Assembly: GCA_027315405.1 (NCBI GenBank)
Contig: DAHUYB010000087.1
Coordinates: 9,672-73,671, forward strand
Direction of reading: 5' to 3'
Length of the DNA stretch: 64,000 nt
Source of the DNA: Gammaproteobacteria bacterium
GTDB lineage: Bacteria > Pseudomonadota > Gammaproteobacteria > Natronospirales > REEB76
The notes under the pieces were generated by a model, which was given only the letters and a program-made list of their open reading frames with translations, had not been told where the DNA came from and ran no database searches. The position numbers were made by a program, and so were the translations under genes. Positions 11,284 through 58,854 of the stretch are shown here, one piece after another (within the stretch, counting starts at the first letter, position 1; the number at the start of each line of letters is the position of its first letter).

Positions 11284-14217
<2,934 letters not shown>

Positions 14218-34858: not shown

Positions 34859-34859
34859 G

Positions 34860-35870
34860 ATGAAAACCGTACTTGTAACCGGGGCTGCAGGATTTATTGG
34901 ATTTCATACTTGTATGAGACTTCTGCATGATGGATATCATGTCATTGGGCTTGATAGTCTTAATAGCTATTATGATGTTAATCTTAAATTGGATAGATTA
35001 AGGCAAATCAGTGGCAACTCGTCATTCCAGTTTTTTAAAATGGATATCTCTGACAGAGAAGCAGTTAAAGATTTATTCAGGACAACGCGCCCACAATTCG
35101 TGATCAACCTCGCTGCACAAGCCGGAGTTCGTTACTCAATACAAAACCCCTATCCTTATGTGGACAGCAATCTGGTCGGTTTTATGAACGTTCTCGAAGG
35201 CTGTCGGTGGGGTAATGCTCAACACCTGGTTTTTGCATCCTCCAGTTCAGTATATGGGGCCAATACGAGCATGCCTTTCTCTGTGGATCAGAACGTTGAT
35301 CACCCATTGTCATTATATGCGGCAACAAAAAAAGCGAATGAATTGATGGCGCATGCTTATAGCAATCTTTACAAACTACCCTGTACTGGGCTGAGATTCT
35401 TTACCGTTTATGGCCCGTGGGGCCGTCCAGATATGTCATATTTCACATTCACCCGTTCGATATTGGAAGGGAAGCCAATCGAAGTATTCAACCATGGTGA
35501 TATGAAGAGGGATTTTACTTACATAGATGATATTGTCGCGGGCACAGCTCAGATCTTACAGAAGATTCCACAAGGTGATTCCGGGTGGGATTCCGACATA
35601 CCTGATCCTGATTCAAGTTATGCTCCTTACAAGATATATAACATCGGTAATAATACGCCAGTAGCACTTATGAAAATGATAGAAGTTCTCGAGCGTGCCC
35701 TGGGAAAGAAGGCAATAATCAATTATTTACCTCTGCAGGATGGAGATGTAAAAACAACTTTTGCCAACATAGATGATCTGATTGCCGATGTGGGTTTTAA
35801 ACCGAGTATTGCGATAGAAGAGGGGGTATTGCGATTCGTCAGATGGTACAGAGATTATTATCGTATCTGA
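34860..35870 (+). CDS. NAD-dependent UDP-glucuronate 4-epimerase-like SDR
   Basis: MKTVLVTGAAGFIGFH...LDSLNSYYDVNLK..RL, then ...SLYAATKKANELMAHAYS... (YxxxK) and ...LRFFTVYGPWGRPDM.... GC content drops noticeably from this gene onward. Confidence 0.85.
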   Translation: MKTVLVTGAAGFIGFHTCMRLLHDGYHVIGLDSLNSYYDVNLKLDRLRQISGNSSFQFFKMDISDREAVKDLFRTTRPQFVINLAAQAGVRYSIQNPYPYVDSNLVGFMNVLEGCRWGNAQHLVFASSSSVYGANTSMPFSVDQNVDHPLSLYAATKKANELMAHAYSNLYKLPCTGLRFFTVYGPWGRPDMSYFTFTRSILEGKPIEVFNHGDMKRDFTYIDDIVAGTAQILQKIPQGDSGWDSDIPDPDSSYAPYKIYNIGNNTPVALMKMIEVLERALGKKAIINYLPLQDGDVKTTFANIDDLIADVGFKPSIAIEEGVLRFVRWYRDYYRI

Positions 35871-35894
35871 TTCCATTTTGTATTCAAAGATACT

Positions 35895-37109
35895 ATGACC
35901 AGACTGCTCACATTCACCAGTCTCTATCCGAATGCGGCCCAGCCGCGACACGGTGTTTTCGTTGAGGAAAGGCTACGCCATCTGGTTGCTTCCGGTAACG
36001 TCACCGCCAAGGTAGTGGCGCCGGTACCCTGGTTTCCGTTCAGGCATCCCCGTTTTGGCAGATATGCGATACATGCTTCAATACCAGAGCGCGAAAAGCG
36101 CTACGGTATTCAAATCGAACATCCGCGATATCCAGTGATGCCGAAAGTGGGCATGGGAATAGCACCGGGTTTGATGTACCGGGCACTCTTGCCAGTATTC
36201 CGCAGGCTGGAAGCCCAGGGTCAGGATTATGATCTGATTGATGCGCATTACTTTTATCCCGACGGTGTGACGGCGGTAAAGTTGGGACAACGTTTGGGCA
36301 AACCTGTGGTGATAACTGCTCGCGGAACTGACGTAACCTTGATTCCCCATTATCGCCTGCCCAGGCGGCAGATACTTTGGGCGGCTGAGCATGCGGCGGC
36401 CATCGTGACGGTCTCGCAGTCGCTCAAGAAGACTCTGGTCGCTTTAGGTGTGGCTCCAGACAAGATTATGGCCCTGCGCAATGGGGTGGATTTGGAGCGC
36501 TTTCGGCCGATGGACCAAACCGTGATTCGGGCCAGGCTTGGGCTGACCGGCCTAGTTTGGCTTTCGGTGGGTCATCTCATAGAACGGAAAGGCCTGCACA
36601 TTATTATTGCGGCACTCGCACAGGTTTCTGATGTAACCCTGCTGATTGTGGGGGACGGACCTGAAGAGGGGCACCTGCGCCAATTAGCCAACAACTTGGG
36701 TGTCAGTGGGCGCATTCGTTTTCTCGGTGCCGTTAAGCATGCCGACTTGTGTGAATATTACAACACGTCAGATGTGCTGGTTCTCGCCTCAAGCCGGGAA
36801 GGGATGCCCAACGTGGTGTTGGAAGCCATGGCCTGTGGCACTCCGGTGATCGCCACAGAAGTTGACGGTACACCGGAGTTGATTACCTCGCCCGAGGCGG
36901 GAGAACTGATGCGAGAGCGCACCCCTGCCGCCTTGGTGGAGGCTTGGTACAGATTGTGTGCACGCAAACCTGAACGCCTGGCAACCCGCAAGTTCGCCGA
37001 GCGCTTCGGATGGCAGCCGACCGTTGACGCACAACAAGCGCTATACACGCGCGTGCTGTCCAGTTTCGGCAATGTGATATCCATTCAACCGGGATTAAAA
37101 GAATCATGA
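35895..37109 (+). CDS. glycosyltransferase family 4
   Basis: 404 aa. MTRLLTFTSLYPNAAQPRHGVFVEERL.... The GT-B motif is ...ASSREGMPNVVLEAMACGTPVIATEVDGTPE. Confidence 0.85.
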   Translation: MTRLLTFTSLYPNAAQPRHGVFVEERLRHLVASGNVTAKVVAPVPWFPFRHPRFGRYAIHASIPEREKRYGIQIEHPRYPVMPKVGMGIAPGLMYRALLPVFRRLEAQGQDYDLIDAHYFYPDGVTAVKLGQRLGKPVVITARGTDVTLIPHYRLPRRQILWAAEHAAAIVTVSQSLKKTLVALGVAPDKIMALRNGVDLERFRPMDQTVIRARLGLTGLVWLSVGHLIERKGLHIIIAALAQVSDVTLLIVGDGPEEGHLRQLANNLGVSGRIRFLGAVKHADLCEYYNTSDVLVLASSREGMPNVVLEAMACGTPVIATEVDGTPELITSPEAGELMRERTPAALVEAWYRLCARKPERLATRKFAERFGWQPTVDAQQALYTRVLSSFGNVISIQPGLKES

Positions 37110-38404
37110 GAAATGCTGCCTCAGTCCCGGCAAGTGAAACACAGTTGCAAACCCCGGATAGCAAGCCGCTGCGCATCCTGCATATCCTGGATCATTCCGT
37201 GCCTCTGCACAGCGGCTATGCATTTCGGACATTGGCTATTCTAGCCGGTCAGCGTGATTTGGGATGGGAAACATTTCAGTTGACAAGTCCAAAACAGGGG
37301 CAGGCGAGTGAGTTACAGGAGCAAGTAGGTGAGTGGATATTTAACCGCACCCCGCTCGCAACGAGTTTTGTATCCAGAGTTCCGGTCGTAAAACACTGGC
37401 GGCTTATCCAGGCTCTTAAAGCACGGCTCCGGGATGTGGTGAACGCAACTCATCCGCATATCCTGCATGCACATTCACCGCTGCTGAATGCCTCCCCTGC
37501 ACTCACTGTTGGCCGGGAGATGGGCCTGCCGGTGGTGTATGAAATACGCGCCTTCTGGGAAGACGCGGCCGCCGATCACGGTACCGCAACTGAGTGGGGT
37601 CTGCGCTACCGGCTGACCCGGGCGTTGGAAACCCATGTCATACGTCGTGCCGATGCGGTGACTACCCTCTGCGAGGGGCTGCGTACCGATCTGATCGCGC
37701 GGGGTATTGCTGGCGAGAAAGTGACGGTGATTCCCAATGCGGTGGACATCAATCAATTTCGGGTAGGTACAACCCCTGACCGTGATCTGATGGAAAAATA
37801 CGGTATGCAAAGCGGGTTTACCTTGGGGTTTGCCGGCTCGTTCTACGCGTATGAAGGACTGGATGTGCTACTCAGGGCCATGCCGTATATTGCTGAAGCC
37901 ATTCCACAAGTACGGTTGCTGCTGGTAGGAGGCGGACCACAGGAGTCTGGGCTGAGGACACTGGCGGCAGAATTGGGCCTGAACGATATTGTGCATTTTG
38001 CCGGACGGGTGCCGCACGACGATATTGCACGCTATTACAGCGTGATGGATATCATGGTGTATCCACGACTGCCGCGCCGTCTCACAGAACTGGTCACGCC
38101 CCTGAAGCCGCTCGAGGCCATGGCACTTGGCAAGCCGGTGGTGGCCTCCGATGTGGGCGGCCACCGGGAGCTGATTTGTGACGGTAAAAATGGCTATCTT
38201 TTCCCGGCAGGGTCAACAGAGGCGCTGGCACAGTGTCTCGTCAGCTTGCTCAAAACTGGCTCGGCCTCTTGGGAAACGGCAGTGCATGCCGGAAGGAATT
38301 ATGTGGAACGCGAACGCAACTGGCCCACGAGTGTGTCGCGTTATCGTTCTGTTTATGCGCGCGTCCTGGATCGGTCAGAGCACACCGTAGAGGACCGTCG
38401 GTGA
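37106..38404 (+). CDS. glycosyltransferase family 4
   Basis: ATGA overlap with the upstream gene. ...LRILHILDHSVPLHSGYAFR... and ...TPLKPLEAMALGKPVVASDVGGHRE.... Confidence 0.85.
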   Translation: MRNAASVPASETQLQTPDSKPLRILHILDHSVPLHSGYAFRTLAILAGQRDLGWETFQLTSPKQGQASELQEQVGEWIFNRTPLATSFVSRVPVVKHWRLIQALKARLRDVVNATHPHILHAHSPLLNASPALTVGREMGLPVVYEIRAFWEDAAADHGTATEWGLRYRLTRALETHVIRRADAVTTLCEGLRTDLIARGIAGEKVTVIPNAVDINQFRVGTTPDRDLMEKYGMQSGFTLGFAGSFYAYEGLDVLLRAMPYIAEAIPQVRLLLVGGGPQESGLRTLAAELGLNDIVHFAGRVPHDDIARYYSVMDIMVYPRLPRRLTELVTPLKPLEAMALGKPVVASDVGGHRELICDGKNGYLFPAGSTEALAQCLVSLLKTGSASWETAVHAGRNYVERERNWPTSVSRYRSVYARVLDRSEHTVEDRR

Positions 38405-39606
38405 ACATGCGAGCTCCAGCGGTGGTTGTCGGGGCGGGCATCAATGGTCTGGGTGTAGCGCGCAGTCTGGCGCGTGAACGAGTACCTGCCTGGATCGTGG
38501 ATTCCGATTCTCGACAGCCGGGGATGCATACCAACGCTGCGCGGCCTTTGGTAATGCCCGCCATGCAGGGAGAGGCTTTGATTGATGGGCTCTTGGCGTT
38601 GGGGTTATCTCAATTCCATGATTTACACCCGGTGCTGATCCTGACTCAGGAAGAAAGTGTCAAGGCGGTCTCGCAATACCGCGAGGTCCTGTCACCTCAT
38701 TACCGTTTCACTCTTCCTGAGCAGTCGGTTGTGGATTCATTGCTGCACAAGGAAATGTTCCAGCGTGTGGCGGAACGGCTGGGCGCACCTATTCCGCCAC
38801 TGGTTCATATCCGCTCAATTCAGGATTTGTCTCTGTTGAATTCCGTTCAGTATCCGGTAGTGATCAAGCCGGGTGAGCGTCACGCTGGTTACAGTCATAT
38901 GTTTAAGAAGGCATACCGTATCGGCGACGTGGCCGAAGCCGAGTATCTGGTCCGGAGGATTTTGCCGGTCATGCCGGATGTGGTCGTGCAGGAATGGATC
39001 GAGGGAGCGGATTCGGACATATTCTTTTGTTTGCAATATATCGGCCACAATGGGTCTGCCGTGACATCATTCACGGGCCGCAAAATTCGTTCCTGGCCGC
39101 CACAGGTGGGCGGTACCGCTAGTTGTATGGCCGCATCCGAAGCAGCCTGTGATCTTGCCACGTTAAGCACCCAGTTTTTCCGCGCAGCAGGCGTTGCGGG
39201 TTTAGCCGGGATGGAATACAAGCACGATACCCGTACCGGCGAATTCAAAATGGTGGAACCGACCATTGGACGCACGGACTACCAGGAAGAAGTGGCGACA
39301 TTGAGCGGGGTCAACCTTCCGTATACCGCCTATTGTGCCGAGCTTGGCATACCTGGGTTGCAACCGGTGCCAACAAAGCGGCCGGTGGTATGGCGGGATC
39401 GCTTGGCAGATTCACAGTCCGCGGCAGCCCAGGGCCAAGGTGCCAAGCAAGGCTTCCCGCGCGGCTGTGTTGTTGCAGAGGCCTTGTGGCGACCGAATGA
39501 TCCCATGCCATTTCTGATGCACATGACGAGGCGTTTGAGCCGTGCATTGCATGCCCGGACCTCAAGGATGCTGAAGATACCTAAAAATGCCAAGGGCGAG
39601 TCATGA
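38401..39606 (+). CDS. ATP-grasp family ligase
   Basis: The start is GTG 38401 (GTGA overlap) or ATG 38407. ...VVVGAGINGLGVARSLA... is the pre-ATP-grasp part. ...YPVVIKPGERH..., ...VVVQEWIEGADSD... and ...EFKMVEPTIGRTD... match ATP-grasp nucleotide/Mg motifs. The track start 38233 lies inside the previous gene. Confidence 0.75.
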   Translation: MNMRAPAVVVGAGINGLGVARSLARERVPAWIVDSDSRQPGMHTNAARPLVMPAMQGEALIDGLLALGLSQFHDLHPVLILTQEESVKAVSQYREVLSPHYRFTLPEQSVVDSLLHKEMFQRVAERLGAPIPPLVHIRSIQDLSLLNSVQYPVVIKPGERHAGYSHMFKKAYRIGDVAEAEYLVRRILPVMPDVVVQEWIEGADSDIFFCLQYIGHNGSAVTSFTGRKIRSWPPQVGGTASCMAASEAACDLATLSTQFFRAAGVAGLAGMEYKHDTRTGEFKMVEPTIGRTDYQEEVATLSGVNLPYTAYCAELGIPGLQPVPTKRPVVWRDRLADSQSAAAQGQGAKQGFPRGCVVAEALWRPNDPMPFLMHMTRRLSRALHARTSRMLKIPKNAKGES

Positions 39607-40721
39607 TCGGGGTCTTAAGCACGCTGACGAAGCGGGTCAAACGGAACAAAATCGCGGCCTTGGATGCACGTGCCGCGATGGTGGCGGCGGCTGAGTGGCT
39701 GACGCGCGCCCAGGATGCCACCGGTACGGGCGGAGTCAGTGCTTACTATGACCTGAAATCACATAAGTGGGCCGCCGCTTATCCCGAAACTACCGGTTAC
39801 ATCATTCCGACATTTTTCCGTTATGCGGAGTTCTCGGGGCAAACTGAATATCGCGAGCGTGCCCTACGCATGGCCGCCTGGGAATCTGATATCCAGCTTC
39901 CTGAAGGCGGCGTTCGTGCGGGTACCATGGATGCCACTCAGGTTGTGCCCACCATATTCAATACCGGCCAAGTCATGTTTGGTTGGTTAGCCGCCTGGGA
40001 GCAGACCGGGGAACCGCGGTTCCGTGATTCACTGGTACACGCGGCGCAATGGCTGCTGGCAGCGCAGGATGCGGATGGGGCCTGGCGGCGCTTTGCCTCG
40101 CCGTTTGCCGCACATAAAGTCAATACTTATAACACCCGCGTAGCCTTCGCACTTGCCCAGGCCGGAAAAATACTGAAGAAGCTTGAATACACCGAAGCAG
40201 CAATTCGTAACATCAACTGGGCACTGACACAAATGCGGAGCAACGGCTGGCTGGAAAACAACGACCTGGAGGACAATGCGCGACCCTTGACGCATACCAT
40301 TGCCTATGCGGCTCGCGGCATACTTGAGGTGGGTCTGATCGCGAAGAATTCGGCTTTTGTGGATGCCGCCGCTCGCATCGCGCGGGCGGTCGCCGGGACA
40401 CAGCGCCGGGATGGAGCATTGCCAGGTCGTCTGGATGCCCAATGGCGGTCTGCGGCCCGCTGGAGCTGTGTCACCGGCAATGCACAGATGGCCATCATCT
40501 GGCGGCGTTTGGCACGGGAAACCGGAGATCATTTCTGGAAGGCGCACGCCGAGCAGGCAACCCGCTTCAATATTTCCGTGCAGGCGCTGTCCGTTGCCGA
40601 TGCTGGGATACGGGGGGGCATCCCTGGATCCCATCCTCTGCGAGGCGGGTACATGTCCTACCGGTTCCCGAACTGGGCCGCCAAGTTCTTCATAGATGCC
40701 GTGTTGTTGCAACTGACATAG
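39603..40721 (+). CDS. uncharacterised protein with prenyltransferase/terpene-cyclase-like (alpha/alpha) repeats
   Basis: ATGA overlap with the ATP-grasp gene. QW-like repeats recur: WLTRAQDATGTGG, WLLAAQDADGAWRRF, LTQMRSNGWLE, VAGTQRRDGALPG. No signal peptide is evident. Confidence 0.6.
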   Translation: MIGVLSTLTKRVKRNKIAALDARAAMVAAAEWLTRAQDATGTGGVSAYYDLKSHKWAAAYPETTGYIIPTFFRYAEFSGQTEYRERALRMAAWESDIQLPEGGVRAGTMDATQVVPTIFNTGQVMFGWLAAWEQTGEPRFRDSLVHAAQWLLAAQDADGAWRRFASPFAAHKVNTYNTRVAFALAQAGKILKKLEYTEAAIRNINWALTQMRSNGWLENNDLEDNARPLTHTIAYAARGILEVGLIAKNSAFVDAAARIARAVAGTQRRDGALPGRLDAQWRSAARWSCVTGNAQMAIIWRRLARETGDHFWKAHAEQATRFNISVQALSVADAGIRGGIPGSHPLRGGYMSYRFPNWAAKFFIDAVLLQLT

Positions 40722-40732
40722 CGTGTAGCAGA

Positions 40733-42031
40733 ATGCGTGATCTTCTCATTGCCTTGATTGTATTCGGATCCATTCCATTCATTCTGATGCGCCCGTATCT
40801 AGGTTTGCTGATGTGGTCCTGGTTGGGCTATATGAATCCGTATCGGTTGGCCTATGGATTTGCCTACAACTTTCCCTGGGTTGAAATCATTGCCATTGTC
40901 ACGCTCGTCGCCCTTATCTTCAGCAAGGAGAGCAAAAAGATTTCGGTTTCATCAATCAGCGTACTGTTATTCCTTTTCTTAGTCTGGACAGGTATTTCCA
41001 CAATCTTTGCGGTCAAATCGGACTCAGCCCTGCTCACAGGGGAAGAGTTTTGGAAAACTCTAACCATGGTCTTTGTTACGCTGATGCTGATAAAAAATCG
41101 TCAGCGCATGCACTGGCTGGTGTGGGTAATCGTGATTTCTCTGGGATTTTATGGCCTCAAGGGTGGGGTATTCACGGTGTTGAAGGGGGGCGCATACCAC
41201 ATATATGGGCCACCCAAGAGCTTCATTGCTGACAATAATGACTTGGCCCTGGCTCTTTGCATGACTTTGCCGCTTATAAGATATTTGCAAATTAATTCAA
41301 CATATAAAGCGGTACGTCTAGCCATGGCCCTCACCTTGATCCTTACTGGCGTAGCAATTCTTGGCACGTATTCACGTGGCGGTTTGGTTGCCTTAGTGGT
41401 TGTGAGCGGAGCTTTACTACTTAAAACTCGCCGCCGCCTCGTAATCATGATGGCAATCGTGATGGTTGGACTCACAGCCTATACTTTTATGCCGGCACAA
41501 TGGAAGGAACGTATGGATACACTCCATCATGCTGAGGAGACTGATTCCGCTCAGGAACGCATTCAGTCGTGGGAGTTCGCTGTGAACGTGGCTATCCATC
41601 ACCCGTTGGTGGGCGGCGGCTTCAACGTTTATCAAAGTGATTCCATGTGGAAGAAGTATGGACCGCAGGGTGCCATTCCACGCGCGATCCACAGCGTATA
41701 TTTCCGCGTGCTGGGCGAGCAAGGATTTCCCGGACTTATCATCTTCATAGGGCTTCTTTTCGCAAGCTGGCGGAGCTGCAGTCGTGTGAGGAAAAAAACA
41801 CGGGATTCACCTGGATGGAAATGGGCGTATGACCTCAGTTCCATGCTGCAAGTGAGCCTGGTTGCCTATGCGACGGCTGGTCTGGCCACGACATCAAGCT
41901 ATTTTGATCTTACATATCAATTAATTGCGATGTGTATTCTATTAGAAGATATCGTCATAAGTCAGATAAAAGAACCCATTGCTGATAAAGGGGTTGGTCA
42001 TGCGCCAGCTGATTTTCCCCAAAGGAGATAA
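40733..42031 (+). CDS. O-antigen-ligase/Wzy-like polymerase (exosortase-A-associated O-glycosylation ligase type)
   Basis: ATG 40733. The product starts MRDLLIALIVFGSIPFILMRPYLGLLMWSWLGYMNP and has about 10-12 TM segments. A Wzy_C-like loop reads ...GTYSRGGLVALVV.... The track ORF start 40442 overlaps the previous gene. Confidence 0.85.
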   Translation: MRDLLIALIVFGSIPFILMRPYLGLLMWSWLGYMNPYRLAYGFAYNFPWVEIIAIVTLVALIFSKESKKISVSSISVLLFLFLVWTGISTIFAVKSDSALLTGEEFWKTLTMVFVTLMLIKNRQRMHWLVWVIVISLGFYGLKGGVFTVLKGGAYHIYGPPKSFIADNNDLALALCMTLPLIRYLQINSTYKAVRLAMALTLILTGVAILGTYSRGGLVALVVVSGALLLKTRRRLVIMMAIVMVGLTAYTFMPAQWKERMDTLHHAEETDSAQERIQSWEFAVNVAIHHPLVGGGFNVYQSDSMWKKYGPQGAIPRAIHSVYFRVLGEQGFPGLIIFIGLLFASWRSCSRVRKKTRDSPGWKWAYDLSSMLQVSLVAYATAGLATTSSYFDLTYQLIAMCILLEDIVISQIKEPIADKGVGHAPADFPQRR

Positions 42032-42068
42032 TTGTTATACCTCGGAAAGGAAGGTTCTAGGTCCCAGG

Positions 42069-43319: not shown

Positions 43320-43324
43320 CCAAG

Positions 43325-44305: not shown

Positions 44306-44343
44306 GAGCGACAAATGTCAAGTTAGACATAGGAGAGATCACT

Positions 44344-46470: not shown

Positions 46471-46551
46471 CCCCGGAATGAGAGCTGATCTTTATGGGAG
46501 AATCAGTATTACGGTAGGCATAACATGGCGGTTGATTCGCTTGGTAAACGC

Positions 46552-47559: not shown

Positions 47560-47781
47560 CAGCTAGATACAAAATGCTTGTAATGGTCTCGATAGCAACA
47601 TTCTGTAAACGCACGAGCATTATAAGGATATGAATTTGTAAGAATCCATAAATCGGGGATCTACTGATTCGGTTTGTATAAACGGCGCAAACTAGTTTCG
47701 CGTAAAATTGCCAGATAATTCACCATTGAACTTGTAAGTTACAGCCGCCTGAACTGCAGCATGAACGGGCTTACCTAGAAC

Positions 47782-49266: not shown

Positions 49267-50150
49267 TGCTTACTATAGATGTAATAGTACGCACACTTGC
49301 GGATTCATTCAGATCCGAAATGCTGTTTCGCGCGCTGGATAGCATTCAAAATCAACACGGCATCACTGCTCGACCCATCGTCGTAGTCAATGGTGAAAGT
49401 TATGATCAGCGGACGCTGAATGCACTGAGAAACCGTCCAGGTATTCGATTTCATTATCAGCAACTGGCTTCGGCTGGTCTGGCATTTAAAGCGGGCTGTC
49501 GTCTTGTTACCGCTCCCTTTTTTGCTTTTCTGGATGACGATGATGTTTTTGTTGAAGATGTATTGCTAAAGCCCGTCATGTGGTTCGAGAACAATCCACA
49601 GTGCGATGTAGTGATCACCAACAGGTACTATGTTAAAGATAACGGCCCGGTGATTGAATTTGCCTGTCTTGCTGATCATGCTGTTCAGCCAGTATTGAGT
49701 TTGTTAGATGAGAATTGGCTTTCTGCAGGCACTGGGTTTTTCCGCACAAGCACCACTATTCCTGCTTTCATGAGCGTGGACAAAGGTCATCAAGAGTGGA
49801 CCCATCTTGCTTATCGGTTGTGTACCGAGGGCAGGCAGCTGCACTTTATGGATGTACCCACGGCACTTGTCTATGACACCCCCGGTTCCATGTCCAAGAA
49901 GATGGTGCACCAAGAGGCAGCATTGGATCTGCTGCAACTTATTAGACATGATTCCAGAATGGATATTCTGGTACACAAGAAAGCCGAGTTCAAATACCGA
50001 AACGCGCTACATGTACTGGCTATGAACTACTGGAGACTTGGGGACCACAAGCGTGCATGGTGCTGTCATCTGGCTAGCTTGCGTCCGCCCCATACCTTCA
50101 AATATATTTTTTTCACACGCAAACTGCTCTGGCCTTTTGGCACAAGCTGA
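49263..50150 (+). CDS. glycosyltransferase family 2
   Basis: ATGA overlap with wzx. ...IDVIVRTL... and ...FFAFLDDDDVF... (DxD) indicate a GT-A fold. Confidence 0.75.
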   Translation: MMLTIDVIVRTLADSFRSEMLFRALDSIQNQHGITARPIVVVNGESYDQRTLNALRNRPGIRFHYQQLASAGLAFKAGCRLVTAPFFAFLDDDDVFVEDVLLKPVMWFENNPQCDVVITNRYYVKDNGPVIEFACLADHAVQPVLSLLDENWLSAGTGFFRTSTTIPAFMSVDKGHQEWTHLAYRLCTEGRQLHFMDVPTALVYDTPGSMSKKMVHQEAALDLLQLIRHDSRMDILVHKKAEFKYRNALHVLAMNYWRLGDHKRAWCCHLASLRPPHTFKYIFFTRKLLWPFGTS

Positions 50151-50160
50151 GTCGTAATAA

Positions 50161-51393
50161 TCATGATGCATCAATTCGAGATGATGAAGACCTCATAAGG
50201 GCGTGTGAAAAGCTCCCTGCGTTCAACAGCACCGCCAGACACAACATCGCTGCGGAACGCATTGCTGCACGCCATTGATGGGTGTGCAGTGATCGCTGTA
50301 ATGTCCAAAAGATGCCACGCGCTATTGAAGGTGCTAACGATTTTGCACCGGTAGCTTTAAGTGTAAAGCTAAGATTTATGATCAGGGAGTATGGACGCGG
50401 TAGCCTCCAGGGGCCAATATCCAAGGCCTTCGATAAGATGGATTTAACCTGGCTTGTAGGTTGTTCAATTTCGTTCAGGCGATCGAGCCCGTCTTTCATA
50501 TCCATCATTGCCTCATTCGTAAGTCCTTGCCGAAACATGATGCAGCTTCTTTGAAGTAAAGCCAGCCCATGCTCAGTTTCAGTCAGGACTGGTAGGTCTG
50601 TTCCTGGTTCATGGGGAAGATAAATTGCCAGGGGACACTCATCTCTTACCAAACGAAATATCCGTTGCTGATACTGTAATTGTATCGCTGATCTTTGATG
50701 GACGCTGTGAACCTTCATCGTTGGTCCTCGAGGGCCTGGATGGTCACGTAATACAAATGTCGGTTTTTGAATATTAAGCGCTTTGAAGCGCCGTGCCAGC
50801 CTAAGTAGCATTTCACTATCCTGGGCCCTCAGCAACGTTGGGTTGAAAGGTCCTGCTTCAGCGAAACAGCGTTTTGGAATTAACATGCCCTGGAACAAGG
50901 TATTGATGCCTTCCATGCTTCGGATTAGAAACAAATCCACGGGCCACGCAGGTATAGTTTTTAAACTCCATTTGTCCTGCTGCCAGATGTCGCTCGTACC
51001 CGAATATACATAGTTAGTGCTATAAGAAAAGTCTGTCTCTGAATGGGCGGTAAGGAAATCTATGTGGCTTTGAAGGGCATCCGGCAACGCCACGTCATCG
51101 TCATCGAATATCCAGATATGGGAACTCTGAGCCAGTGGGATTCCTAAATTTAGTGCAGAGGATTTACCACGATTTTCGGTCCTGTAATAACGAATCTGTT
51201 TGTTGTAGTGTTCCGCAACTTCGGCAGTTTCATCAGTCGAACCATCATCCACGACGATGATTTCATCGGGGGGGCGAGTCTGATGCAAGAGGCTATCCAA
51301 TGCCTGCGGCAGATAGTGAGCGCGGTTGTAGGTCGCGATAACAACCGACACGCTGATAGCAATTGTTTTTGGGCTTGAGCGATTAGCCATCAT
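50161..51393 (-). CDS. glycosyltransferase family 2 (only minus-strand gene of the locus)
   Basis: ...VSVVIATYNRAHYLPQALDSLLHQTRPPDEIIVVDDGSTDET... and ...IWIFDDDDV.... It is convergent with the preceding GT2, leaving a 10-nt gap. Confidence 0.88.
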   Translation of the reverse strand: MMANRSSPKTIAISVSVVIATYNRAHYLPQALDSLLHQTRPPDEIIVVDDGSTDETAEVAEHYNKQIRYYRTENRGKSSALNLGIPLAQSSHIWIFDDDDVALPDALQSHIDFLTAHSETDFSYSTNYVYSGTSDIWQQDKWSLKTIPAWPVDLFLIRSMEGINTLFQGMLIPKRCFAEAGPFNPTLLRAQDSEMLLRLARRFKALNIQKPTFVLRDHPGPRGPTMKVHSVHQRSAIQLQYQQRIFRLVRDECPLAIYLPHEPGTDLPVLTETEHGLALLQRSCIMFRQGLTNEAMMDMKDGLDRLNEIEQPTSQVKSILSKALDIGPWRLPRPYSLIINLSFTLKATGAKSLAPSIARGIFWTLQRSLHTHQWRAAMRSAAMLCLAVLLNAGSFSHALMRSSSSRIDAS

Positions 51394-51566
51394 TGCGTAT
51401 TAAATTGTAGCGGTAGCTTATGCTAACGTATGATTATAATGTACATTAGCAGTTACTGACTCAGCACAAGATTACAGGAATGGAACTGCATTACATGTTG
51501 TGTAAACAACAGTTGCCGCCCTATGAAAGGGCATCGTTTAATTGATATTCAATCAAGCCCGATATT

Positions 51567-52427
51567 ATGATCCCTGCTATCCAATATTTTAACCTTCCAG
51601 CCGAACTCTTAACATCAGAAATTGAGGAAGAATTCTTTTCTTCGTTGAAATTACGCAATGGGACGTATAAAACGACTTTTCAGAAACGCTTCTCAGATAT
51701 AAATAAGCAGATCCTAGTACTGCTGAAAACTACTGATATAAAAGTAGATAATATACTGGATATTGGCATCTCTTCAGGGATAAGTACACTTGAACTGGTT
51801 GAGGACTTAAATTCAGCGGGCTATACAAATCATATCGTCGGTACGGATTTGCTAATGGACGCTTATATCGTGCATATATTTCCAGGTTGTTATGCACTTG
51901 TAGATAACACCGGCTATCCACTAAGATTTGATTTGTTCAAATGGAGTATCAAACCCTGGATTATAAGAACAGACTATCATAATGGTTTCTTCATTTTCCG
52001 TAAATTCATCAATCTTATATTTGTATATCGCGCAAAGAATCTGATTGCCAAATCCAAGCATGCGGATGTCCAGAAGGTGAAACTTATCACACCAAAGCTA
52101 TTAAGTCACACTAATGTGGTTATTCAGATGGGTGATATAACTAAATTTAATTATTCGTATAGAGAAAAGTTCAATTTCATAAGGGCTGCAAATATATTGA
52201 ACGTGAGTTATTTTACGAAGGCGGAATTAGTCGCAATAATTAACAATATTAAACATTATTTTACGAAGCCAAGTGGAACTTTATTGGTAGTGCGCACCCA
52301 TGAAGACGGGAGCAACCATGGCAGCTTGTTTAATATTGCTAACCATAGCAAGTGTGAAGTTATTGGGCGATTTGGAGCGGGTTCAGAGATAGAAGATATT
52401 GTACTTGCGTCAATAAATAAGCACTGA
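51567..52427 (+). CDS. putative class I SAM-dependent methyltransferase
   Basis: 286 aa in very AT-rich DNA. Motif I-like is NILDIGISSGISTLEL, the acidic end of beta-2 is IVGTDL, and later blocks are FIRAANILNV and GTLLVV. The assignment rests on motif resemblance only. Confidence 0.55.
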   Translation: MIPAIQYFNLPAELLTSEIEEEFFSSLKLRNGTYKTTFQKRFSDINKQILVLLKTTDIKVDNILDIGISSGISTLELVEDLNSAGYTNHIVGTDLLMDAYIVHIFPGCYALVDNTGYPLRFDLFKWSIKPWIIRTDYHNGFFIFRKFINLIFVYRAKNLIAKSKHADVQKVKLITPKLLSHTNVVIQMGDITKFNYSYREKFNFIRAANILNVSYFTKAELVAIINNIKHYFTKPSGTLLVVRTHEDGSNHGSLFNIANHSKCEVIGRFGAGSEIEDIVLASINKH

Positions 52428-52548
52428 CAAATTTTATTTAACCTTACATTCCCAAGGTGAATATGAACGGATTGGAAGCGCGGATTATAGATTCCCTTGG
52501 TTAAAGCCGGTGGAATCTATAAAGATGCATTAGTATTCGGAGACTGAA

Positions 52549-53199
52549 ATGCAAGCAGATGTCCATTCTAGGCAACTGATTATCGGATGTGGAACAGGTA
52601 GATGTGGCACTGTATCTTTGATGCAGTTTTTGAATAGCCAAGTGGATGTTTCCATACTCCATGAAGGGCTGACCGCCGATAAAATCCACCACCTCATCCC
52701 ATGGTATAAAGGGGAAACTCAGCTGTGGTCTTGGATGATTGAACTTGAGAAATTGTCAAACGGAGCAAGATGGTACGGGGATATCGGTTTTTACTATCTC
52801 CCTTATCTTCCGAAGATATTTGACCGTTATCCAAAATCACGTGCCATCTGCCTCGAACGGCGCAAGAAGGCAGTGATCCAAAGTTTCCTTAAAAAAACGA
52901 CTGGAAGGAATCACTGGTACATGCATAAGGGCGTAGGTTGGAAAGAGGATGATGAATGGGATAACACTTTTCCTTACTATGCAGAGCTGAACAAATCCAA
53001 GGCCATTGGTTTATATTGGGAGCAATATCACAGTACAGCTTTGGAATATTGCGCACTGTTTCCGGATCAGTTTATGTTGGTGCCTACATCGGCACTGAAT
53101 ACGACAAAGGGCCGACTGAAGATATTAGGGTTTATCGGCTACGATAGAGAAGCCATGCTTGATGGGCAGTTCCGAGCGAATAACATCCGCCCTAAATGA
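52549..53199 (+). CDS. hypothetical protein, possibly a divergent sulfotransferase-fold enzyme (ST3-like)
   Basis: 216 aa. The N-terminal P-loop-like segment LIIGCGTGRCGTVSLMQFL sits where the PSB loop would be. AICLERRKKAVIQSF resembles an R-x7-S 3'-PB segment. The similarity is weak and motif-level only. Confidence 0.45.
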   Translation: MQADVHSRQLIIGCGTGRCGTVSLMQFLNSQVDVSILHEGLTADKIHHLIPWYKGETQLWSWMIELEKLSNGARWYGDIGFYYLPYLPKIFDRYPKSRAICLERRKKAVIQSFLKKTTGRNHWYMHKGVGWKEDDEWDNTFPYYAELNKSKAIGLYWEQYHSTALEYCALFPDQFMLVPTSALNTTKGRLKILGFIGYDREAMLDGQFRANNIRPK

Positions 53200-53306
53200 T
53201 GGGGCTTGATTGTTTATGGTCTTGAAGATTACGGAATTCTTAAGGTGGTCCACCTGATATCTGATCGTGGTGCTATGTCAGATTTGATACTCATTCGGGA
53301 TATGAA

Positions 53307-53996
53307 ATGATATTGCTGATCACGCAAGTGATGATATTGTGTTTTCTAATTATTTCTGTAGCGCTTTGGGGAGGGTATTTTCCTCATCCTTCCCCCTTAA
53401 TTCGACGTTGGTTGCCGCCACGTAAGCGCTGGCCTGAAGCGCAGATTCGGCGATGGCTGAAGACGGGGAAATTTCAGCGGGCATTTCTGAATTATTTTTA
53501 TCGTGATCCAGAGCGCACACCACCTCTCGGCAACAGCATTCTCGCTCCCGCTGACGGGGCGGTAACTAGTGTTGAGGTGCGCGACGGAGTGCGCTATCTG
53601 GTGATTGCACTCAGTTTCTGGGACATGCATGTACAACGCAGCCCCGTGTCCGGCAGAGTGGTCAAAGTGGAGTCACATGGAAGTGATTTTATGGACGGCG
53701 AAGGACGGAAATTCGCTTTTCTCAGAGAGAAACCCTGCCCGGTACAGAAGCGTGTGGTTATTGCCACGAGTGTGGGAGAAATTGCGGTGCGGCTGATTAC
53801 CAGTCTTGCAGCGCGTCGTATTGAAGTCTGGGTGCGGGAAGGGGGGAGACTTGTGCGTGGACAGAGAATCGGCCGGATTTTGCTGGGCAGCACCGTGGTG
53901 CTTGAGCTACCTGCAACCATAAACCTTAGCGTACAAGTGGGTGAGCGTGTTAAAGCGGGTGAAACCGTTGTTGCACAGGAAATGATCTCAGTATGA
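53307..53996 (+). CDS. phosphatidylserine decarboxylase family protein (short, membrane-anchored type)
   Basis: 229 aa with an N-terminal TM segment. ...ILAPADGAVTSVE..., ...WDMHVQRSPVSGRV... and ...GQRIGRILLGSTVVLELP... are present. The last contains the LGST self-cleavage motif of pyruvoyl PSDs. Confidence 0.75.
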   Translation: MILLITQVMILCFLIISVALWGGYFPHPSPLIRRWLPPRKRWPEAQIRRWLKTGKFQRAFLNYFYRDPERTPPLGNSILAPADGAVTSVEVRDGVRYLVIALSFWDMHVQRSPVSGRVVKVESHGSDFMDGEGRKFAFLREKPCPVQKRVVIATSVGEIAVRLITSLAARRIEVWVREGGRLVRGQRIGRILLGSTVVLELPATINLSVQVGERVKAGETVVAQEMISV

Positions 53997-54196
53997 ACGC
54001 ATTCTGGTGGACATCCGGGCATCTGGGTTGGGGCATTTTTGCACTGATCGCGTTTACGGGAATATGGTGGTTGTTGTTCGATTTGTGCTGGCGCTTGGTT
54101 ACCATCAGGATAAACCGGCTCTTGACCGTGATGGGCATAGGATGGTTGGTTGGCGTTGCCTGTATTTTACTGGGTTTCTATGTGGCTGGCTGGTAA
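53993..54196 (+). CDS. small two-TM membrane protein, translationally coupled to the PSD-like gene
   Basis: ATGA overlap with the upstream gene. 67 aa, Trp-rich, with two hydrophobic helices: GWGIFALIAFTGIWWLLF and VMGIGWLVGVACILLGFYVAGW. Confidence 0.6.
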   Translation: MNAFWWTSGHLGWGIFALIAFTGIWWLLFDLCWRLVTIRINRLLTVMGIGWLVGVACILLGFYVAGW

Positions 54197-54427
54197 AACC
54201 GGAAGTTCAGCAAGCCCGGTAAACCGGATTTCCCTGAATTAAAAAACCGCGCTCTGGCGGCAATCAGTCAGTGCGACCGCCCATCGTGAAAAATACGCCG
54301 TTCATCCATTCAAATGCAAAACCTTTAGTGTAGAAACTATACTCCAGCCTCGATACGCGGATTAAATAACAACGATTATCTGTAATTCATTGGTTTATCA
54401 ATATGTATATGCTGTCAGGAGATAACG

Positions 54428-57073
54428 TTGAAGTCAGCACTGTGTCTACCGTTCGATTTCGCCTGGCTGTCTTGGCGAGCCCTGGGTCGGGACAGCCTGA
54501 TACACGGCAAGAGGGCTGGCGGAAATTCTCTTGATTTCCCCAAAATAGCCAGGTTGCCGTTGACGGGGTTATCCATTGTATGTGTGTGTGCTGGCGCGGC
54601 GCTCACGATAGGTGTTGCGCAAGCCGGCACGCTGCTAGTCACCAATAACCTCATCAATGAGGGCTCACAAGCGCAGGCTAATGTTCCGGTTACCTTCGGG
54701 CAGATTTTCAAGGGCGGTGATGTGCCTGCCGGCGAGACACTCAGTGCGACATTAGGCGGTCAGCCTATCCAGTTGCAGATTGATACCAAAGCCACCAACC
54801 CGGACGGCAGTCTGCGCCATGCGGTATTGACGGCGCTAGTTCCCTCGATCTCCGGTAATTCCACCGCGCCGCTTGCCTTGTCCACCGCAGCACCTTCGAC
54901 GCCAGGCTCTCCAGTTACGCTTACCCAATTGCTTGCCACCTCGTTTGACGCCACCGTGGATATCAATATCGGCGGGACGGATTACACTGCAAGTGCGAAA
55001 CAGTTGCTACAGGCGAACCAAGCTGCCTGTGCTCCCTGGAACACCGCTTGCAATGTGTGGCTCTCCGGCCCCTTGGTCAGCGAGTGGATTGTGGGCGGGC
55101 CGGTGAAAAGCTCGGGAGGCACAGCGAACCCCAACCTCCAGGTCTATTTTGATGTACGAGCTTATGCGGGGAACCCCATCAATCGGGTGCGTGTGAATGT
55201 GGTCATCGAGAACGACTGGGCGTATACGCCGCAGACAAGTATTACTTATAACGCTACCCTGACATCAGGGTCGGATACCTACACCATCAGCAACCTCACC
55301 CACTATGCCTATGCCCGCTGGCATCACGTGCTGTGGTGGAACGGCAGCAATCCTGACATTTATGTCCAGCAGGACACCCAGTACATTCAATCCACCGGGG
55401 CAGTTTCGCGCTACGAGGTGCTGACTCCGGACAACTCTTTCCTGAGCAATCGTATCCAGTCGTGCTTACCTATGCAGCATTGTGACCAGACCTTGACCAT
55501 GGGTAATACCGGCGCGCAGGACGGCATTGGACCTCTGCCGCGCTGGACCTCGACCTATATCGTTGATCCGGATTATCGCGCCTATAATTGGATGCTCGCC
55601 GACGACGATGCCATTGGAGCCTATTCCGTGCATTACCGGGATCAGGCAACAGGGTTGCCGCTCAGCATTATCAAACATCCGTATGTGACTACCGCTGCCT
55701 GGAACTATGCCAATTCCGTAGCGAAACAAAATCCCACTACTTGGGGTAAAGATCTGCTGCCGAATTGCAACAGTAGTAGTGCGAATTACTGCGTGAACAA
55801 TCCCGACCAGTTCGACAACGCCCATCACCCCTCAGTTGCGTTTGTTTCTTACATGGTTACCGGGGATTACTACTATCTTGAAGAAATGCAATATGTAGCT
55901 TCCTACCTGGAGCTGTGGGCCAACCCACCCTATCGTGGCTATTCACAGGGGTTGGTTTATGCCGCCGAGGAACAGACTCGCGGTAAGGCGTGGACAATGC
56001 GCAGCATCGGCGATGCCGCTTACCTTACCCCGGACGCTGACCCCATGAAAGCCGAGTTCACCGCGGATATCAACAATGCGGTTGCGGATTTCATTGCGCA
56101 GACGGCTAACAATCCAAACGCCAATCCACTTGGCCTGGTGTCGAATTATTTCTACTCCGTTAACGGAGGCACCAATAATGGTGCGGCGCCCTGGCAGGAC
56201 GATTTCTTGACTTGGGCGGCTGGCCATTTGGCGGAACAAGGTGTTCCGGGCGCCAGTACCCTGCTGAATTGGAAGGCGCAATTCCAGATTGGCCTGATGA
56301 CTGACTGGTTCAATAATCCGACTCAGGGATATTGCTGGTTGGAGGCTTCCGCCTATTCACCACAGTTCAAGGATTCGTCGGGGAATTTCTTACCAACATT
56401 TACGGCTGTGTACCAGGTCAATTTCCCGACCTTGTATGGACTGACATGCAACAGTCCGCAAATGGTGACCGCCATGGGCTTACTCGAACATGCTACATGG
56501 CAGGCGGGAGAGATGCACGGCTATCCTAATTCAGCTACCGGATTCCCGGCCAACCTGCAGATCGGACTAGCCGCGGCTGCGGCCAGCAATTTGCCGAACG
56601 CTCAGCAGGCCTGGCAGACTTTCCAGGGCCGGAGCATCCAGCCGACCCCTCCCAACAGCTATAACGACTACCCTAATTTTGCCGTCCTACCCCGTTACTT
56701 GCCGGCGGTCCCCATCGTAAATCTCTATGCCAGCCCCAATCCGGTGGCGGCGGCGGGAGATACCACTACCCTGTACTGGAATGCCAGCAATGCCACCAGT
56801 TGTTCGGCCCCCTGGACCGGCAGTACCGCGACTTCGGGTCAGATGACCGTGACGGTTAGCGCGAATGCTGCCTTCCCGATCACCTGCACCGGACCGAATG
56901 GCTCCACCAACGACCCCGTGAGCGTTTCCATTGGCAGCGGCACGACGACGACGCCCCCCCCACCTCCGGCCACGTCCCCACCCGCGGCAGGGGCGGGAGG
57001 CGGCGCCATGAGTTGGTTGGCCCTGGTGTTCCTGATGACCGTGGCTGGGTGGGCAAGGGCAAAGCGCCGCTGA
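54428..57073 (+). CDS. large secreted protein of unrecognised family ('LpB'), paralog of 44344-46470, with extra Ig-like domain, Pro/Thr linker and C-terminal sorting signal
   Basis: TTG 54428 lies 7 nt after AGGAG. The signal-like segment is ...LPLTGLSIVCVCAGAALTIGVAQA/GT. The C-terminus reads ...TTTTPPPPPATSPPAAGAGGGAMSWLALVFLMTVAGWARAKRR. The start codon is uncertain. Confidence 0.8.
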   Translation: MKSALCLPFDFAWLSWRALGRDSLIHGKRAGGNSLDFPKIARLPLTGLSIVCVCAGAALTIGVAQAGTLLVTNNLINEGSQAQANVPVTFGQIFKGGDVPAGETLSATLGGQPIQLQIDTKATNPDGSLRHAVLTALVPSISGNSTAPLALSTAAPSTPGSPVTLTQLLATSFDATVDINIGGTDYTASAKQLLQANQAACAPWNTACNVWLSGPLVSEWIVGGPVKSSGGTANPNLQVYFDVRAYAGNPINRVRVNVVIENDWAYTPQTSITYNATLTSGSDTYTISNLTHYAYARWHHVLWWNGSNPDIYVQQDTQYIQSTGAVSRYEVLTPDNSFLSNRIQSCLPMQHCDQTLTMGNTGAQDGIGPLPRWTSTYIVDPDYRAYNWMLADDDAIGAYSVHYRDQATGLPLSIIKHPYVTTAAWNYANSVAKQNPTTWGKDLLPNCNSSSANYCVNNPDQFDNAHHPSVAFVSYMVTGDYYYLEEMQYVASYLELWANPPYRGYSQGLVYAAEEQTRGKAWTMRSIGDAAYLTPDADPMKAEFTADINNAVADFIAQTANNPNANPLGLVSNYFYSVNGGTNNGAAPWQDDFLTWAAGHLAEQGVPGASTLLNWKAQFQIGLMTDWFNNPTQGYCWLEASAYSPQFKDSSGNFLPTFTAVYQVNFPTLYGLTCNSPQMVTAMGLLEHATWQAGEMHGYPNSATGFPANLQIGLAAAAASNLPNAQQAWQTFQGRSIQPTPPNSYNDYPNFAVLPRYLPAVPIVNLYASPNPVAAAGDTTTLYWNASNATSCSAPWTGSTATSGQMTVTVSANAAFPITCTGPNGSTNDPVSVSIGSGTTTTPPPPPATSPPAAGAGGGAMSWLALVFLMTVAGWARAKRR

Positions 57074-57622
57074 ATCCGCCCGTTTGCGTTACCTGAACTG
57101 GCACAAATTAGCGGTTCATTTCCTTGGCGAGGTTGTGGTATGGCATGAAATACCCGCTCAGTCCCGCTGAAATAAGCAGGCACCGCGTGCAAACTGCCGG
57201 CCCATCATAACAACCTGCTGGAAGGGCAATCCCGACTTGCCGTCACGGCCTTAAGCTCATACGGATACCTTACGCAGCGATACTGCTTCCGGCAGGACGC
57301 AACGCTATCGTCGCATCCTCCATACCAACCTCCGTTAAAGTGCACCTTGCACCGCAGACTCGGTGCTGCTTACGCCCGCCGCGGCTACCGCGAGCGATCC
57401 TTGGAGTTCCTAAAGGAGACTCCTCGCCTCGGGCTTGCCCTTCCTTAGAAGACCCCTCATTTTTTGGCCTGTATCGTGAACTGGATCCGCTTCCTGAACC
57501 CCGCCTCACCAGCCGGGCTCCAGGTCTCGCGGGCTCCACGCGTCCGGGAGCGGTAATCCATAATATGTTTGGGTACCTCTGGTACACTGAACATAATATC
57601 TACCAAGGTGAAACACATCGCC

Positions 57623-58795: not shown

Positions 58796-58854
58796 ACTAC
58801 GTGTAGTCCCGTCAAGTGTAAAAAGTCATGCTATCTGTGATGAATGCCGCGTAA

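Follow-up and report, generated by a model that had tools for sequence, protein, structure and literature searches.

The window analysed here (the whole stretch of 64,000 nucleotides, positions 9,672 to 73,671 of contig DAHUYB010000087.1, assembly GCA_027315405.1) carries a polysaccharide locus of the exosortase A (XrtA)/PEP-CTERM type, and the present work concerns its part between 34860 and 57073, which a previous reading of the letters alone (the sequence-only reading) had described as one AT-rich 'variable arm', laterally assembled, with a conserved XrtA core on one side of the graft and wecB-prsKRT on the other. A comparison with related loci shows that this 'arm' divides into four parts:

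33860-35870, variable spot VR1
35895-43319, conserved core extension
43325-53199, main variable region VR2
53307-57073, right flank

The conserved framework reaches from tviB/tviC (15.4 kb) through XrtA to 43319 and resumes at 53307 with a phosphatidylserine decarboxylase (PSD)-like gene, the gene of a lyase-like protein, wecB and prsKRT. The variable module within it is real; it measures approximately 10 kb plus a 2-kb side spot (and not 22 kb), and it is a clade-level rather than a strain-specific trait.

The XrtA framework

Judged by the NCBIfam models, the surroundings form a complete XrtA/PEP-CTERM exopolysaccharide (EPS) locus, the markers of which span 18.7-42 kb and 58.9-64 kb. Its left part encodes TviB/TviC-like UDP-GlcNAc dehydrogenase and epimerase, after which epsB2 is the first XrtA-system gene; the export genes (EpsB_2 priming transferase, export protein, chain-length determinant, tyrosine kinase and the TIGR03016 outer-membrane protein) are accompanied by those of an ATPase, a deacetylase, FemAB and stp1, by exosortase A with EpsI, and then by stp2 and an amidotransferase:

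29134-30711, exosortase A (TIGR03109 289.8 bits, cut-off 208), with EpsI (TIGR02914 76 bits)

Curated cut-offs are passed by EpsB_2, export protein, chain-length determinant, deacetylase, FemAB, stp1/2/3, amidotransferase and O-glycosylation ligase, while the tyrosine kinase (202 vs 231 bits) and the ATPase (319 vs 324.5 bits) lie slightly below theirs. By family assignment, the priming phosphoglycosyltransferase, Wzx flippase, PCP and OPX of a Wzx/Wzy-type pathway are all present (priming transferase TIGR03013 518 bits; TIGR03027 214 bits; TIGR03007 467 bits; Wzx PF13440 207 bits), and on these predicted identities the locus contains every part of an XrtA-coupled, Wzx-dependent pathway. A scan of every open reading frame (ORF) of at least 50 aa in the window revealed none with a PEP-CTERM-like tail.

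The conserved core extension

The proteins of the window were mapped onto two sets of related loci, 80 from genomes (centred on homologues of the ligase gene 40733-42031) and 80 from metagenomes (centred on the PSD-like gene), which were fetched with 10 kb on either side of the anchor gene; presence is given below as a fraction of the 24 species-level relatives with fully covered flanks. The contig Ga0307374_10000579 (L088, 69.9 kb) is referred to as REL. The genes of 35895-43319 are present, in order, in 22-24 of the 24 relatives:

35895-37109, plus strand, GT4 glycosyltransferase (PF13692, PF00534); 24/24, median identity 66%, same position; G+C content (GC) 0.559
37106-38404, plus strand, stp3, XrtA-system glycosyltransferase (TIGR04063 598.7 bits, cut-off 442); 22/24
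38401-39606 (longest ORF from 38233), plus strand, ATP-grasp-like ligase (NF009402, weak, 38 bits); 24/24
39603-40721, plus strand, alpha/alpha-repeat (toroid-like) protein (weak Pec_lyase and SQHop_cyclase_C matches); 24/24, median identity 73%
40733-42031, plus strand, Wzy_C/DUF5935 membrane protein, 'putative O-glycosylation ligase, exosortase A system-associated' (TIGR03097 488.6 bits, cut-off 188); 24/24
42054-43319 (longest ORF from 41979), plus strand, GT4-like glycosyltransferase, last core gene (PF13579 33 bits); 24/24

The order xrtA-stp2-amidotransferase (asnB)-(sulfotransferase)-GT4-stp3-ATP-grasp-alpha/alpha-ligase-GT4-like is kept in all 39 family-level loci (L001-L039), the GT4-like gene standing always immediately 3' of the ligase. 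Homologues of the ligase are many (58-75% identical) and belong to Rhodanobacteraceae and to unclassified gammaproteobacterial metagenome-assembled genomes (MAGs), and those of stp3 also occur in Thiobacillus-type loci (52-57%). The border that the sequence-only reading had drawn between a conserved core and a variable arm is thereby displaced, this segment being conserved in the relatives and 53307-57073 recurring as a flank.

The same reading had counted the product of 40733 as a Wzy-like polymerase owned by the arm. By their model matches, both this Wzy_C protein and stp3 are core XrtA components, and the former is 58-75% identical among relatives whose downstream genes differ. Since its conservation extends to loci whose variable regions differ, it would act on a conserved substrate, and it may be either a ligase (the NCBIfam name being that of a putative ligase) or the polymerase of a conserved backbone linkage. 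Besides it and Wzx, 34-57 kb encodes no multi-pass membrane protein.

The ATP-grasp-like and alpha/alpha pair (38401-40721) occurs in 24/24 relatives, yet no curated XrtA-system model matches either member. NF009402 is a carbamoyl-phosphate-synthase-like ATP-grasp model, and the REL orthologue of the gene that matches it encodes 401 aa; homologues of the alpha/alpha protein (approximately 40% identical) are found in betaproteobacterial XrtA loci, and a PDB sequence search with it returned nothing useful.

The variable regions VR1 and VR2

VR1, between the amidotransferase and the GT4 gene, holds zero, one or two genes depending on the relative, and in the window two:

33860-34858, plus strand, sulfotransferase, first gene of VR1 (PF13469 71.9 bits, PF00685 40.3 bits); 17/24
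34860-35870, plus strand, NAD-dependent sugar epimerase/dehydratase of the SDR type (PF01370 194 bits; GC 0.42, GC at third codon positions (GC3) 0.395), a single-gene low-GC insertion

In the seven relatives devoid of the first sulfotransferase asnB directly adjoins the GT4 gene, and in REL the sulfotransferase is reduced to a 125-aa fragment. The SDR gene, which is the strongest deviant in codon usage, was found in 0/24 species-level relatives and is present only in L001 (81% amino-acid identity) and REL (89%, GC 0.40), being better conserved between the window and REL than its neighbours (73-81%), a pattern that fits a comparatively recent spread within the subclade of the window and REL.

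The genes of VR2 occur in 0-13 of the 24 relatives, with changing positions and orientations:

43325-44305, plus strand, sulfotransferase, first gene of VR2 (PF13469 85.4 bits; GC 0.478); 2/24 in range
44296-46470, plus strand, large secreted polysaccharide lyase/hydrolase-like protein; 5/24, homologues all annotated 'hypothetical'
46525-47559, plus strand, polysaccharide deacetylase-like protein, second in the locus (PF01522 26.8 bits, cut-off 23.1, weak); 1/24 in range
47560-47781, AT-rich spacer 5' of wzx (GC 0.405)
47782-49266, plus strand, Wzx (MOP) flippase (PF13440 207 bits)
49263-50150 (plus strand) and 50161-51393 (minus strand), GT2 pair cassette (PF00535)
51567-52427, plus strand, gene with a methyltransferase-motif-I-like stretch (GC 0.364), no family match
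52549-53199, plus strand, sulfotransferase-like gene, borderline (PF17784 23.8 bits)

Every one of these genes has homologues (approximately 45-70% identical) in other Rhodanobacteraceae XrtA loci, in different combinations, which indicates that the cassettes shuffle within a family-level pool and do not come from distant donors. Homologues of Wzx (54-66%) are found in 13/24 relatives at varying positions and orientations, and those of the second deacetylase (59-73%) in L003, L121, L127 and REL. The cassette 51394-53306, which comprises the 51567 and 52549 genes, is bounded by AT-rich spacers.

The gene inventory of the sequence-only reading stands in most of its entries: the five glycosyltransferases (35895, 37106, 41979/42054, 49263 and, on the minus strand, 50161), the Wzy_C protein, Wzx, the (weak) deacetylase, the ATP-grasp-like and alpha/alpha pair and the PSD-like gene were all recovered, and 50161-51393 is indeed the sole minus-strand gene of the locus. 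Its sulfotransferases require one amendment, in that 43325 is clear and 52549 borderline, and 33860-34858, which it had left in the core, is by PF13469 a clear sulfotransferase too, so that three sulfotransferase-family genes lie in the locus (33860-34858, 43325-44305 and 52549-53199). The presence of the first in 17/24 related species predicts a sulfated exopolysaccharide in this gammaproteobacterial family. The label 'methyltransferase-like' for 51567 found no such backing, as no significant family match was obtained, a PDB sequence search returned nothing useful, and the best hit of a 13-sequence profile against the PDB (E=0.43) was a SAM methyltransferase, leaving the label unproven.

The protein encoded by 44296-46470 is probably a lipoprotein, as suggested by an LTSC lipobox-like motif. 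Its AlphaFold2 model (pLDDT 87) comprises a beta-sandwich and an alpha/alpha domain, and is matched best in Foldseek by the PL26 exo-rhamnogalacturonan lyase 5xqj (E 6e-6, with a TM of only 0.34) and next by GH88/GH105-type toroids; our best guess from this model is a polymer-trimming lyase or hydrolase.

Cassette differences among near relatives

The loci closest to the window differ by whole cassettes:

L081, collinear with window 43305-55115 (11.8 kb) at 94.6% nucleotide identity, no difference
L085, 72-81% nucleotide identity in aligned blocks, without 51.4-53.3 kb, GT2 pair present
L084, 71-79% nucleotide identity in aligned blocks, without the GT2 pair and the 52549 gene
REL, approximately 70-80% amino-acid identity and the same overall order, with three extra genes 3' of the GT4-like gene and a 578-aa PP-loop protein in place of 51567-53199

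L081 is an independent contig from another data set and spans all VR2 junctions. The GT2 pair is missing as a unit from L084 and is present in L081, L085 and REL, and all the cassette breakpoints of the near relatives fall in AT-rich spacers. Identity to REL is uneven between neighbouring genes (56% to 89%), the 43325 sulfotransferase reaching only 56% and its neighbours approximately 70%. Further away, the equivalent region of the cultured relative Rhodanobacter denitrificans has a gene set of its own, with methyltransferases, an APH-like kinase and an AT3-SGNH acyltransferase. The alignment with relatives thus bears out the expectation that the content of VR1 and VR2 varies, and contradicts the expectation that the variation is strain-specific (L081 being 94.6% identical and REL keeping most of the order).

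The gene that takes the place of 51567-53199 in REL belongs to a group encoding soluble proteins of approximately 577 aa (REL/L088 8150-9886; L009 15921-17654) that contain the PP-loop motif SGGFDSR and match no Pfam family; this group was seen in 45 related loci, usually just 5' of the PSD gene, and is absent from the window. The idea that it might be a hidden Wzy was rejected, as it has no membrane segments and carries the PP-loop motif instead.

Signatures of mobility were sought in 34860-57073, and neither an integrase or transposase (Pfam, NCBIfam) nor a tRNA or meaningful flanking repeats were found; the repeats of 33-58.5 kb amount to paralogue similarity and short chance-level matches. 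The two arms of an imperfect 19-nt inverted repeat (51545-51563 / 53199-53217) lie exactly on either side of the 51567-53199 cassette; we treat this repeat as chance, because it is less complementary in L081 and nine other similar pairs exist in the region. The view of 34860-57073 as a mobile or genomic island was rejected, given that composition, absence from relatives and mobility signatures all speak against it.

Scans for regulatory signals returned background levels. In 42-59 kb, 18 sigma-70 promoter and 21 terminator sites were counted (20.5 and 16.5 expected), and the sigma-54 -24/-12 pattern gave 46 matches (44 expected), neither scan showing enrichment; the best sigma-70-like site (51542-51571, 10/12) falls within the spacer at 51.4 kb, which proves nothing. 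No tRNA or Rfam family was detected in the window, and the sole ops-like element, GGCGGTAG, is found at 5330, outside the locus. Between the tviB/tviC-like genes and epsB2 there is a 987-nt gap (17687-18673, GC 0.473) without a long ORF or an Rfam match, which is possibly a long leader or regulatory region.

Nucleotide composition

The four hand counts of G+C in 60-nt lines that had suggested a compositional change were exact when recomputed (33 at 29521, 19 at 34981, 15 at 51961 and 15 at 52141). The GC amounts to 0.617 in the housekeeping flank (1-14300), 0.550 in 14300-34859, 0.511 in 34860-57073 and 0.534 in the wecB-prsKRT part (57074-64000). The change of character placed at 34.86 kb nevertheless comes down to a single gene: 34860-35870 (GC 0.42) alone accounts for the drop, GC is back to 0.56-0.59 over the next five genes (35895-40721), and further on 54428-57073 is again core-like (0.568).

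Gene-level GC3 gives the same partition. The mean for 43325-53199 is 0.478 vs 0.611 for the upstream core (Mann-Whitney p=2e-4), and neither 35.9-43.3 kb (0.586, p=0.19) nor the right part (0.573, p=0.11) differs from that core, so that among the parts of 34860-57073 tested in this way only 43325-53199 deviates. A uniformly deviant composition across 34860-57073 is seen neither in GC per segment nor in the GC3 tests; the predicted deviation in GC and codon usage holds for 43325-53199 and 34860-35870 and fails for 35.9-43.3 kb and the right part. Outside the window the pattern recurs, the DNA 3' of the GT4-like gene having a lower GC than the core in 33/33 relatives.

The biggest step in GC3 and codon usage lies elsewhere, at approximately 14.3 kb, where the polysaccharide locus begins after uvrA (housekeeping GC3 0.758 vs polysaccharide core 0.611, p=5e-4). 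As the GC3 of the locus is below that of its housekeeping neighbours throughout, the main compositional boundary of the window is located at this position. The locus as a whole (14218-15365 and 15.4-64 kb, XrtA core and prsKRT included) has a GC3 of about 0.56-0.65, and the side of uvrA, manB and manC one of 0.72-0.83.

Two of the AT-rich gaps described earlier are real (47560-47781, GC 0.405; 51394-51566, GC 0.376), and the third, by ORF limits, runs over 53997-54427 (GC 0.469) and not 54197-54427. The reading frames of the region are intact and tightly packed.

The right flank

Beyond VR2 the framework resumes with the following genes:

53307-53996, plus strand, enzyme of the phosphatidylserine-decarboxylase (pyruvoyl) family (PF02666 107.5 bits, cut-off 22)
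54428-57073, plus strand, large secreted paralogue of 44296-46470 (41% identical to it over 728 aa), extended by a C-terminal Ser/Thr/Pro-rich domain
57569-64000, plus strand, wecB, prsK, prsR and prsT, the last cut by the window end (TIGR00236 295.6, TIGR02916 709.7 and TIGR02915 680.2 bits)

The PSD-like protein (229 aa) has an N-terminal membrane helix, and its LGST self-cleavage site (G194-S195-T196) and WDxHxxxxP motif (D106/H108) are invariant in 10 homologues. It falls short of the equivalog models both for characterised PSDs (NF003685, the best score, 143.5 bits, cut-off 183) and for PssD of the archaeal sorting system (NF038088 105.6 bits, cut-off 240), and its gene carries the codon usage of the locus and not that of housekeeping genes. 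Homologues are 67-88% identical; further genes of this locus accompany the PSD gene in 62 of the 64 loci whose flanks are long enough, and in 20/25 loci the 3' neighbour is a 54428-57073 homologue, prsT or wecB. The gene was seen in L005, L015, L021, L028, L030, L037-L040, L045 and L081-L160; it is linked to XrtA in Rhodanobacteraceae, in a Thiohalobacter MAG and in another gammaproteobacterial MAG; it was not found in the betaproteobacterial XrtA loci examined. A literature search on exosortases and phosphatidylserine decarboxylase returned nothing beyond the haloarchaeal ArtA/PssD work (PMC7157517). We put forward, as a speculation with rather long odds, that the PSD-like enzyme could be a dedicated XrtA partner instead of a housekeeping Psd, which might either make an ethanolamine-type acceptor amine for PEP-CTERM cleavage by exosortase A, as a bacterial parallel to haloarchaeal ArtA with PssD, or convert a serine substituent of the polymer to ethanolamine; if true, either role would be the first biochemical handle on the target of exosortase attachment.

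That the two large secreted proteins are paralogous, as the sequence-only reading had it, is borne out by the alignment given above. The true start of 54428-57073 is probably near 54530, and a PDB sequence search with its product returned nothing useful. In relatives its homologues adjoin the PSD gene, often on the opposite strand. The C-terminus (56950-57073) consists of a Pro/Thr-rich linker and the tail GAGGGAMSWLALVFLMTVAGWARAKRR, which scores 20.0 bits against TIGR03501 (GlyGly-CTERM, cut-off 15.5) in a scan restricted to the last 63 residues, the model not being reported for the whole protein at E<=0.001. Such a tail was observed in 7/57 complete homologues, all of the window's subclade, and would mark, within an exosortase locus, a sorting signal of another (rhombosortase) kind.

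Between the lyase-like gene and wecB, REL (L088 14212-15129) encodes a 305-aa PEP-CTERM protein (PF07589, DUF4114); the window has at 57074-57568 a non-coding gap of 495 nt, in which tblastn finds no remnant of the REL gene. PrsT reaches 278 bits with TIGR02917 on the partial protein, under the full-length cut-off of 312. The wecB-prsKRT block is co-directional with the PSD gene in the window and in REL and inverted in many Rhodanobacter loci, with prsT converging on the PSD gene in L090, L091, L097, L098, L102, L112, L125 and L152.

Nature and origin of the variable region

Taken together, these observations point to the region as the type-specific variable part of a Wzx-dependent XrtA/PEP-CTERM exopolysaccharide locus, set within a conserved framework larger than the sequence-only reading had assumed and hosted by an uncultured Rhodanobacteraceae-related gammaproteobacterium, a reading to which we assign a probability of roughly 0.8. 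The features of a serotype-type variable region (conserved flanks, cassette exchange and lower G+C) are found in 43325-53199 together with 33860-35870. We propose that the conserved genes would build, polymerise or ligate, and export a common acidic amino-sugar backbone, which would be rich in N-acetylated amino-uronic sugars (UDP-GalNAcA via the TviB/TviC-like enzymes, ManNAc via WecB) and may be modified by the amidotransferase, FemAB, ATP-grasp and deacetylase proteins. To this backbone VR1 and VR2 may contribute side-chain sugars (through two GT2s and an SDR-made sugar), sulfate (through three sulfotransferases) and de-N/O-acetylation, with VR2 further supplying a flippase fitted to the completed repeat unit, along with a lyase/hydrolase that would trim or release the polymer. 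Exchange of cassettes among members of the family could proceed by homologous recombination in the conserved flanks and by illegitimate joins in the AT-rich spacers; as with O-antigen and capsule loci, the outcome would be a diversified surface polymer.

Several points weigh against this reading. The enzyme roles rest on family membership, which is in part weak (deacetylase 26.8, 52549 sulfotransferase 23.8 and ATP-grasp 38 bits), and the relatives compared include no strain series at >98% average nucleotide identity, while a gene scored as absent could lie beyond the 10-kb flank of a fetched locus. Furthermore, VR2 holds no separate Wzy, unlike classical O-antigen loci; the breakpoint spacers, when aligned among relatives, revealed neither a conserved junction sequence nor a recombination signal; and the low GC could stem partly from selection rather than history.

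The last point leads to the alternative that fares best, namely that the composition is kept by selection (through low or silenced expression, or through the amino-acid content of membrane and decoration enzymes) and that the relatives differ by lineage-specific losses. It would account for the low GC retained in diverged orthologues (0.40 for the SDR gene in REL, 0.45-0.50 for VR2 genes), for the position of the entire locus, conserved core included, below housekeeping GC3, and for the drop 3' of the core in all relatives inspected. Against it stand the occurrence of the same genes in different orders, orientations and combinations, the replacements (and not losses) seen at several positions (the 578-aa gene against 51567-53199, the three extra genes of REL) and the swings of 56-89% in identity to REL between adjacent genes, and we consider this explanation unlikely.

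Less probable still is the original proposal, in which lateral assembly made the whole of 34860-57073 into a single module equipped with a polymerase and flippase of its own. The mean GC of the stretch (0.511 vs 0.550 upstream) and its possession of the only minus-strand gene and of the AT-rich gaps agree with it, but the interval 35895-43319 is retained in order by 22-24/24 relatives with a core-like GC3, stp3 and the Wzy_C protein score above the cut-offs of curated XrtA-system models, the PSD gene and the 54428-57073 homologues recur as a flank beside prsKRT, and an integrase, a transposase, a tRNA and flanking repeats were all sought without success. What survives of the proposal is a low-GC mosaic decoration module that varies among relatives; its boundaries and the single 22-kb graft do not. 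Least credible of all is an assembly artefact, that is, a chimeric metagenome contig joining different populations. All the closest matches do come from metagenome contigs or MAGs, and the window proteins have their record on one assembled contig of 98 kb; yet L081 is collinear across the VR2 junctions over 11.8 kb (43305-55115, 94.6% identity), REL repeats the gene order on its 69.9-kb contig, and the reading frames are intact and tightly packed.

Relation to known systems and significance

The locus shares its marker set (exosortase A/EpsI, EpsB_2, export, chain-length, kinase, TIGR03016, ATPase, deacetylase, FemAB, stp1/2/3, amidotransferase, TIGR03097 and PrsK/PrsR/PrsT) with the XrtA/PEP-CTERM EPS loci of Zoogloea resiniphila ('zooglan'), Aquincola tertiaricarbonis RN12 and Methylobacillus sp. 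12S (methanolan eps). These clusters are reported to be needed for floc formation, with PrsK/PrsR and RpoN controlling PEP-CTERM genes (PMC9850573; bioRxiv 10.64898/2025.12.21.693542). Unlike those loci, the family described here adds the ATP-grasp and alpha/alpha pair and the GT4-like gene to the conserved core; its right flank includes a PSD-family gene and lyase-like paralogues, and its sulfotransferases number up to three. Moreover, the window contains no PEP-CTERM gene, whereas its relative REL has one. Searches of the literature on Rhodanobacter and exosortase returned no paper on this locus.

The O-antigen and capsule (K) loci of Enterobacteriaceae and Acinetobacter consist of conserved export and regulatory flanks around a lower-GC, cassette-exchanging centre with wzx, glycosyltransferases and modification enzymes. 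The present locus resembles them in its conserved flanks and in a low-GC variable centre of the same content, and departs from them in that its sole Wzy_C-family gene lies in the conserved part (58-75% identity) instead of being the most variable gene, that the variable spots are two and separate, and that the locus is linked to protein sorting through XrtA.

As in the xss (synechan) cluster of Synechocystis PCC 6803, PF13469/PF00685 sulfotransferases stand beside glycosyltransferases in a Wzx/Wzy-type EPS cluster. In contrast to that cyanobacterial case the host here is a gammaproteobacterium, the cluster is XrtA-linked and sulfation is a prediction. According to the synechan paper (PMC8205485), no other bacterial EPS cluster was known to contain sulfotransferase genes, and XrtA loci with sulfotransferases would broaden the picture of sulfated EPS beyond cyanobacteria. 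The link of a PSD-family gene with a sortase-like C-terminal processing system has its counterpart in ArtA with PssA/PssD of Haloferax volcanii, where the ArtA-PssD link was shown genetically and needs PssA too (PMC7157517); unlike there, no PssA-type gene occurs in this locus, and the cut-off of NF038088 is failed.

The architecture is thus that of an ordinary serotype-type variable region, with a layout familiar from O-antigen and capsule loci and not in itself surprising. Side leads are a possible sulfated EPS outside cyanobacteria, and a PSD-family enzyme and a GlyGly-CTERM lyase-like protein at an exosortase locus. Four genes of the conserved framework that have no XrtA model (ATP-grasp-like, alpha/alpha protein, GT4-like and PSD-like) are to be added to the description of the system. 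The map obtained here separates the family-wide framework from the exchangeable, type-determining part in a poorly studied soil/groundwater lineage, and shows where diversity sits for the typing or engineering of floc or biofilm polymers in Rhodanobacter-like bacteria.

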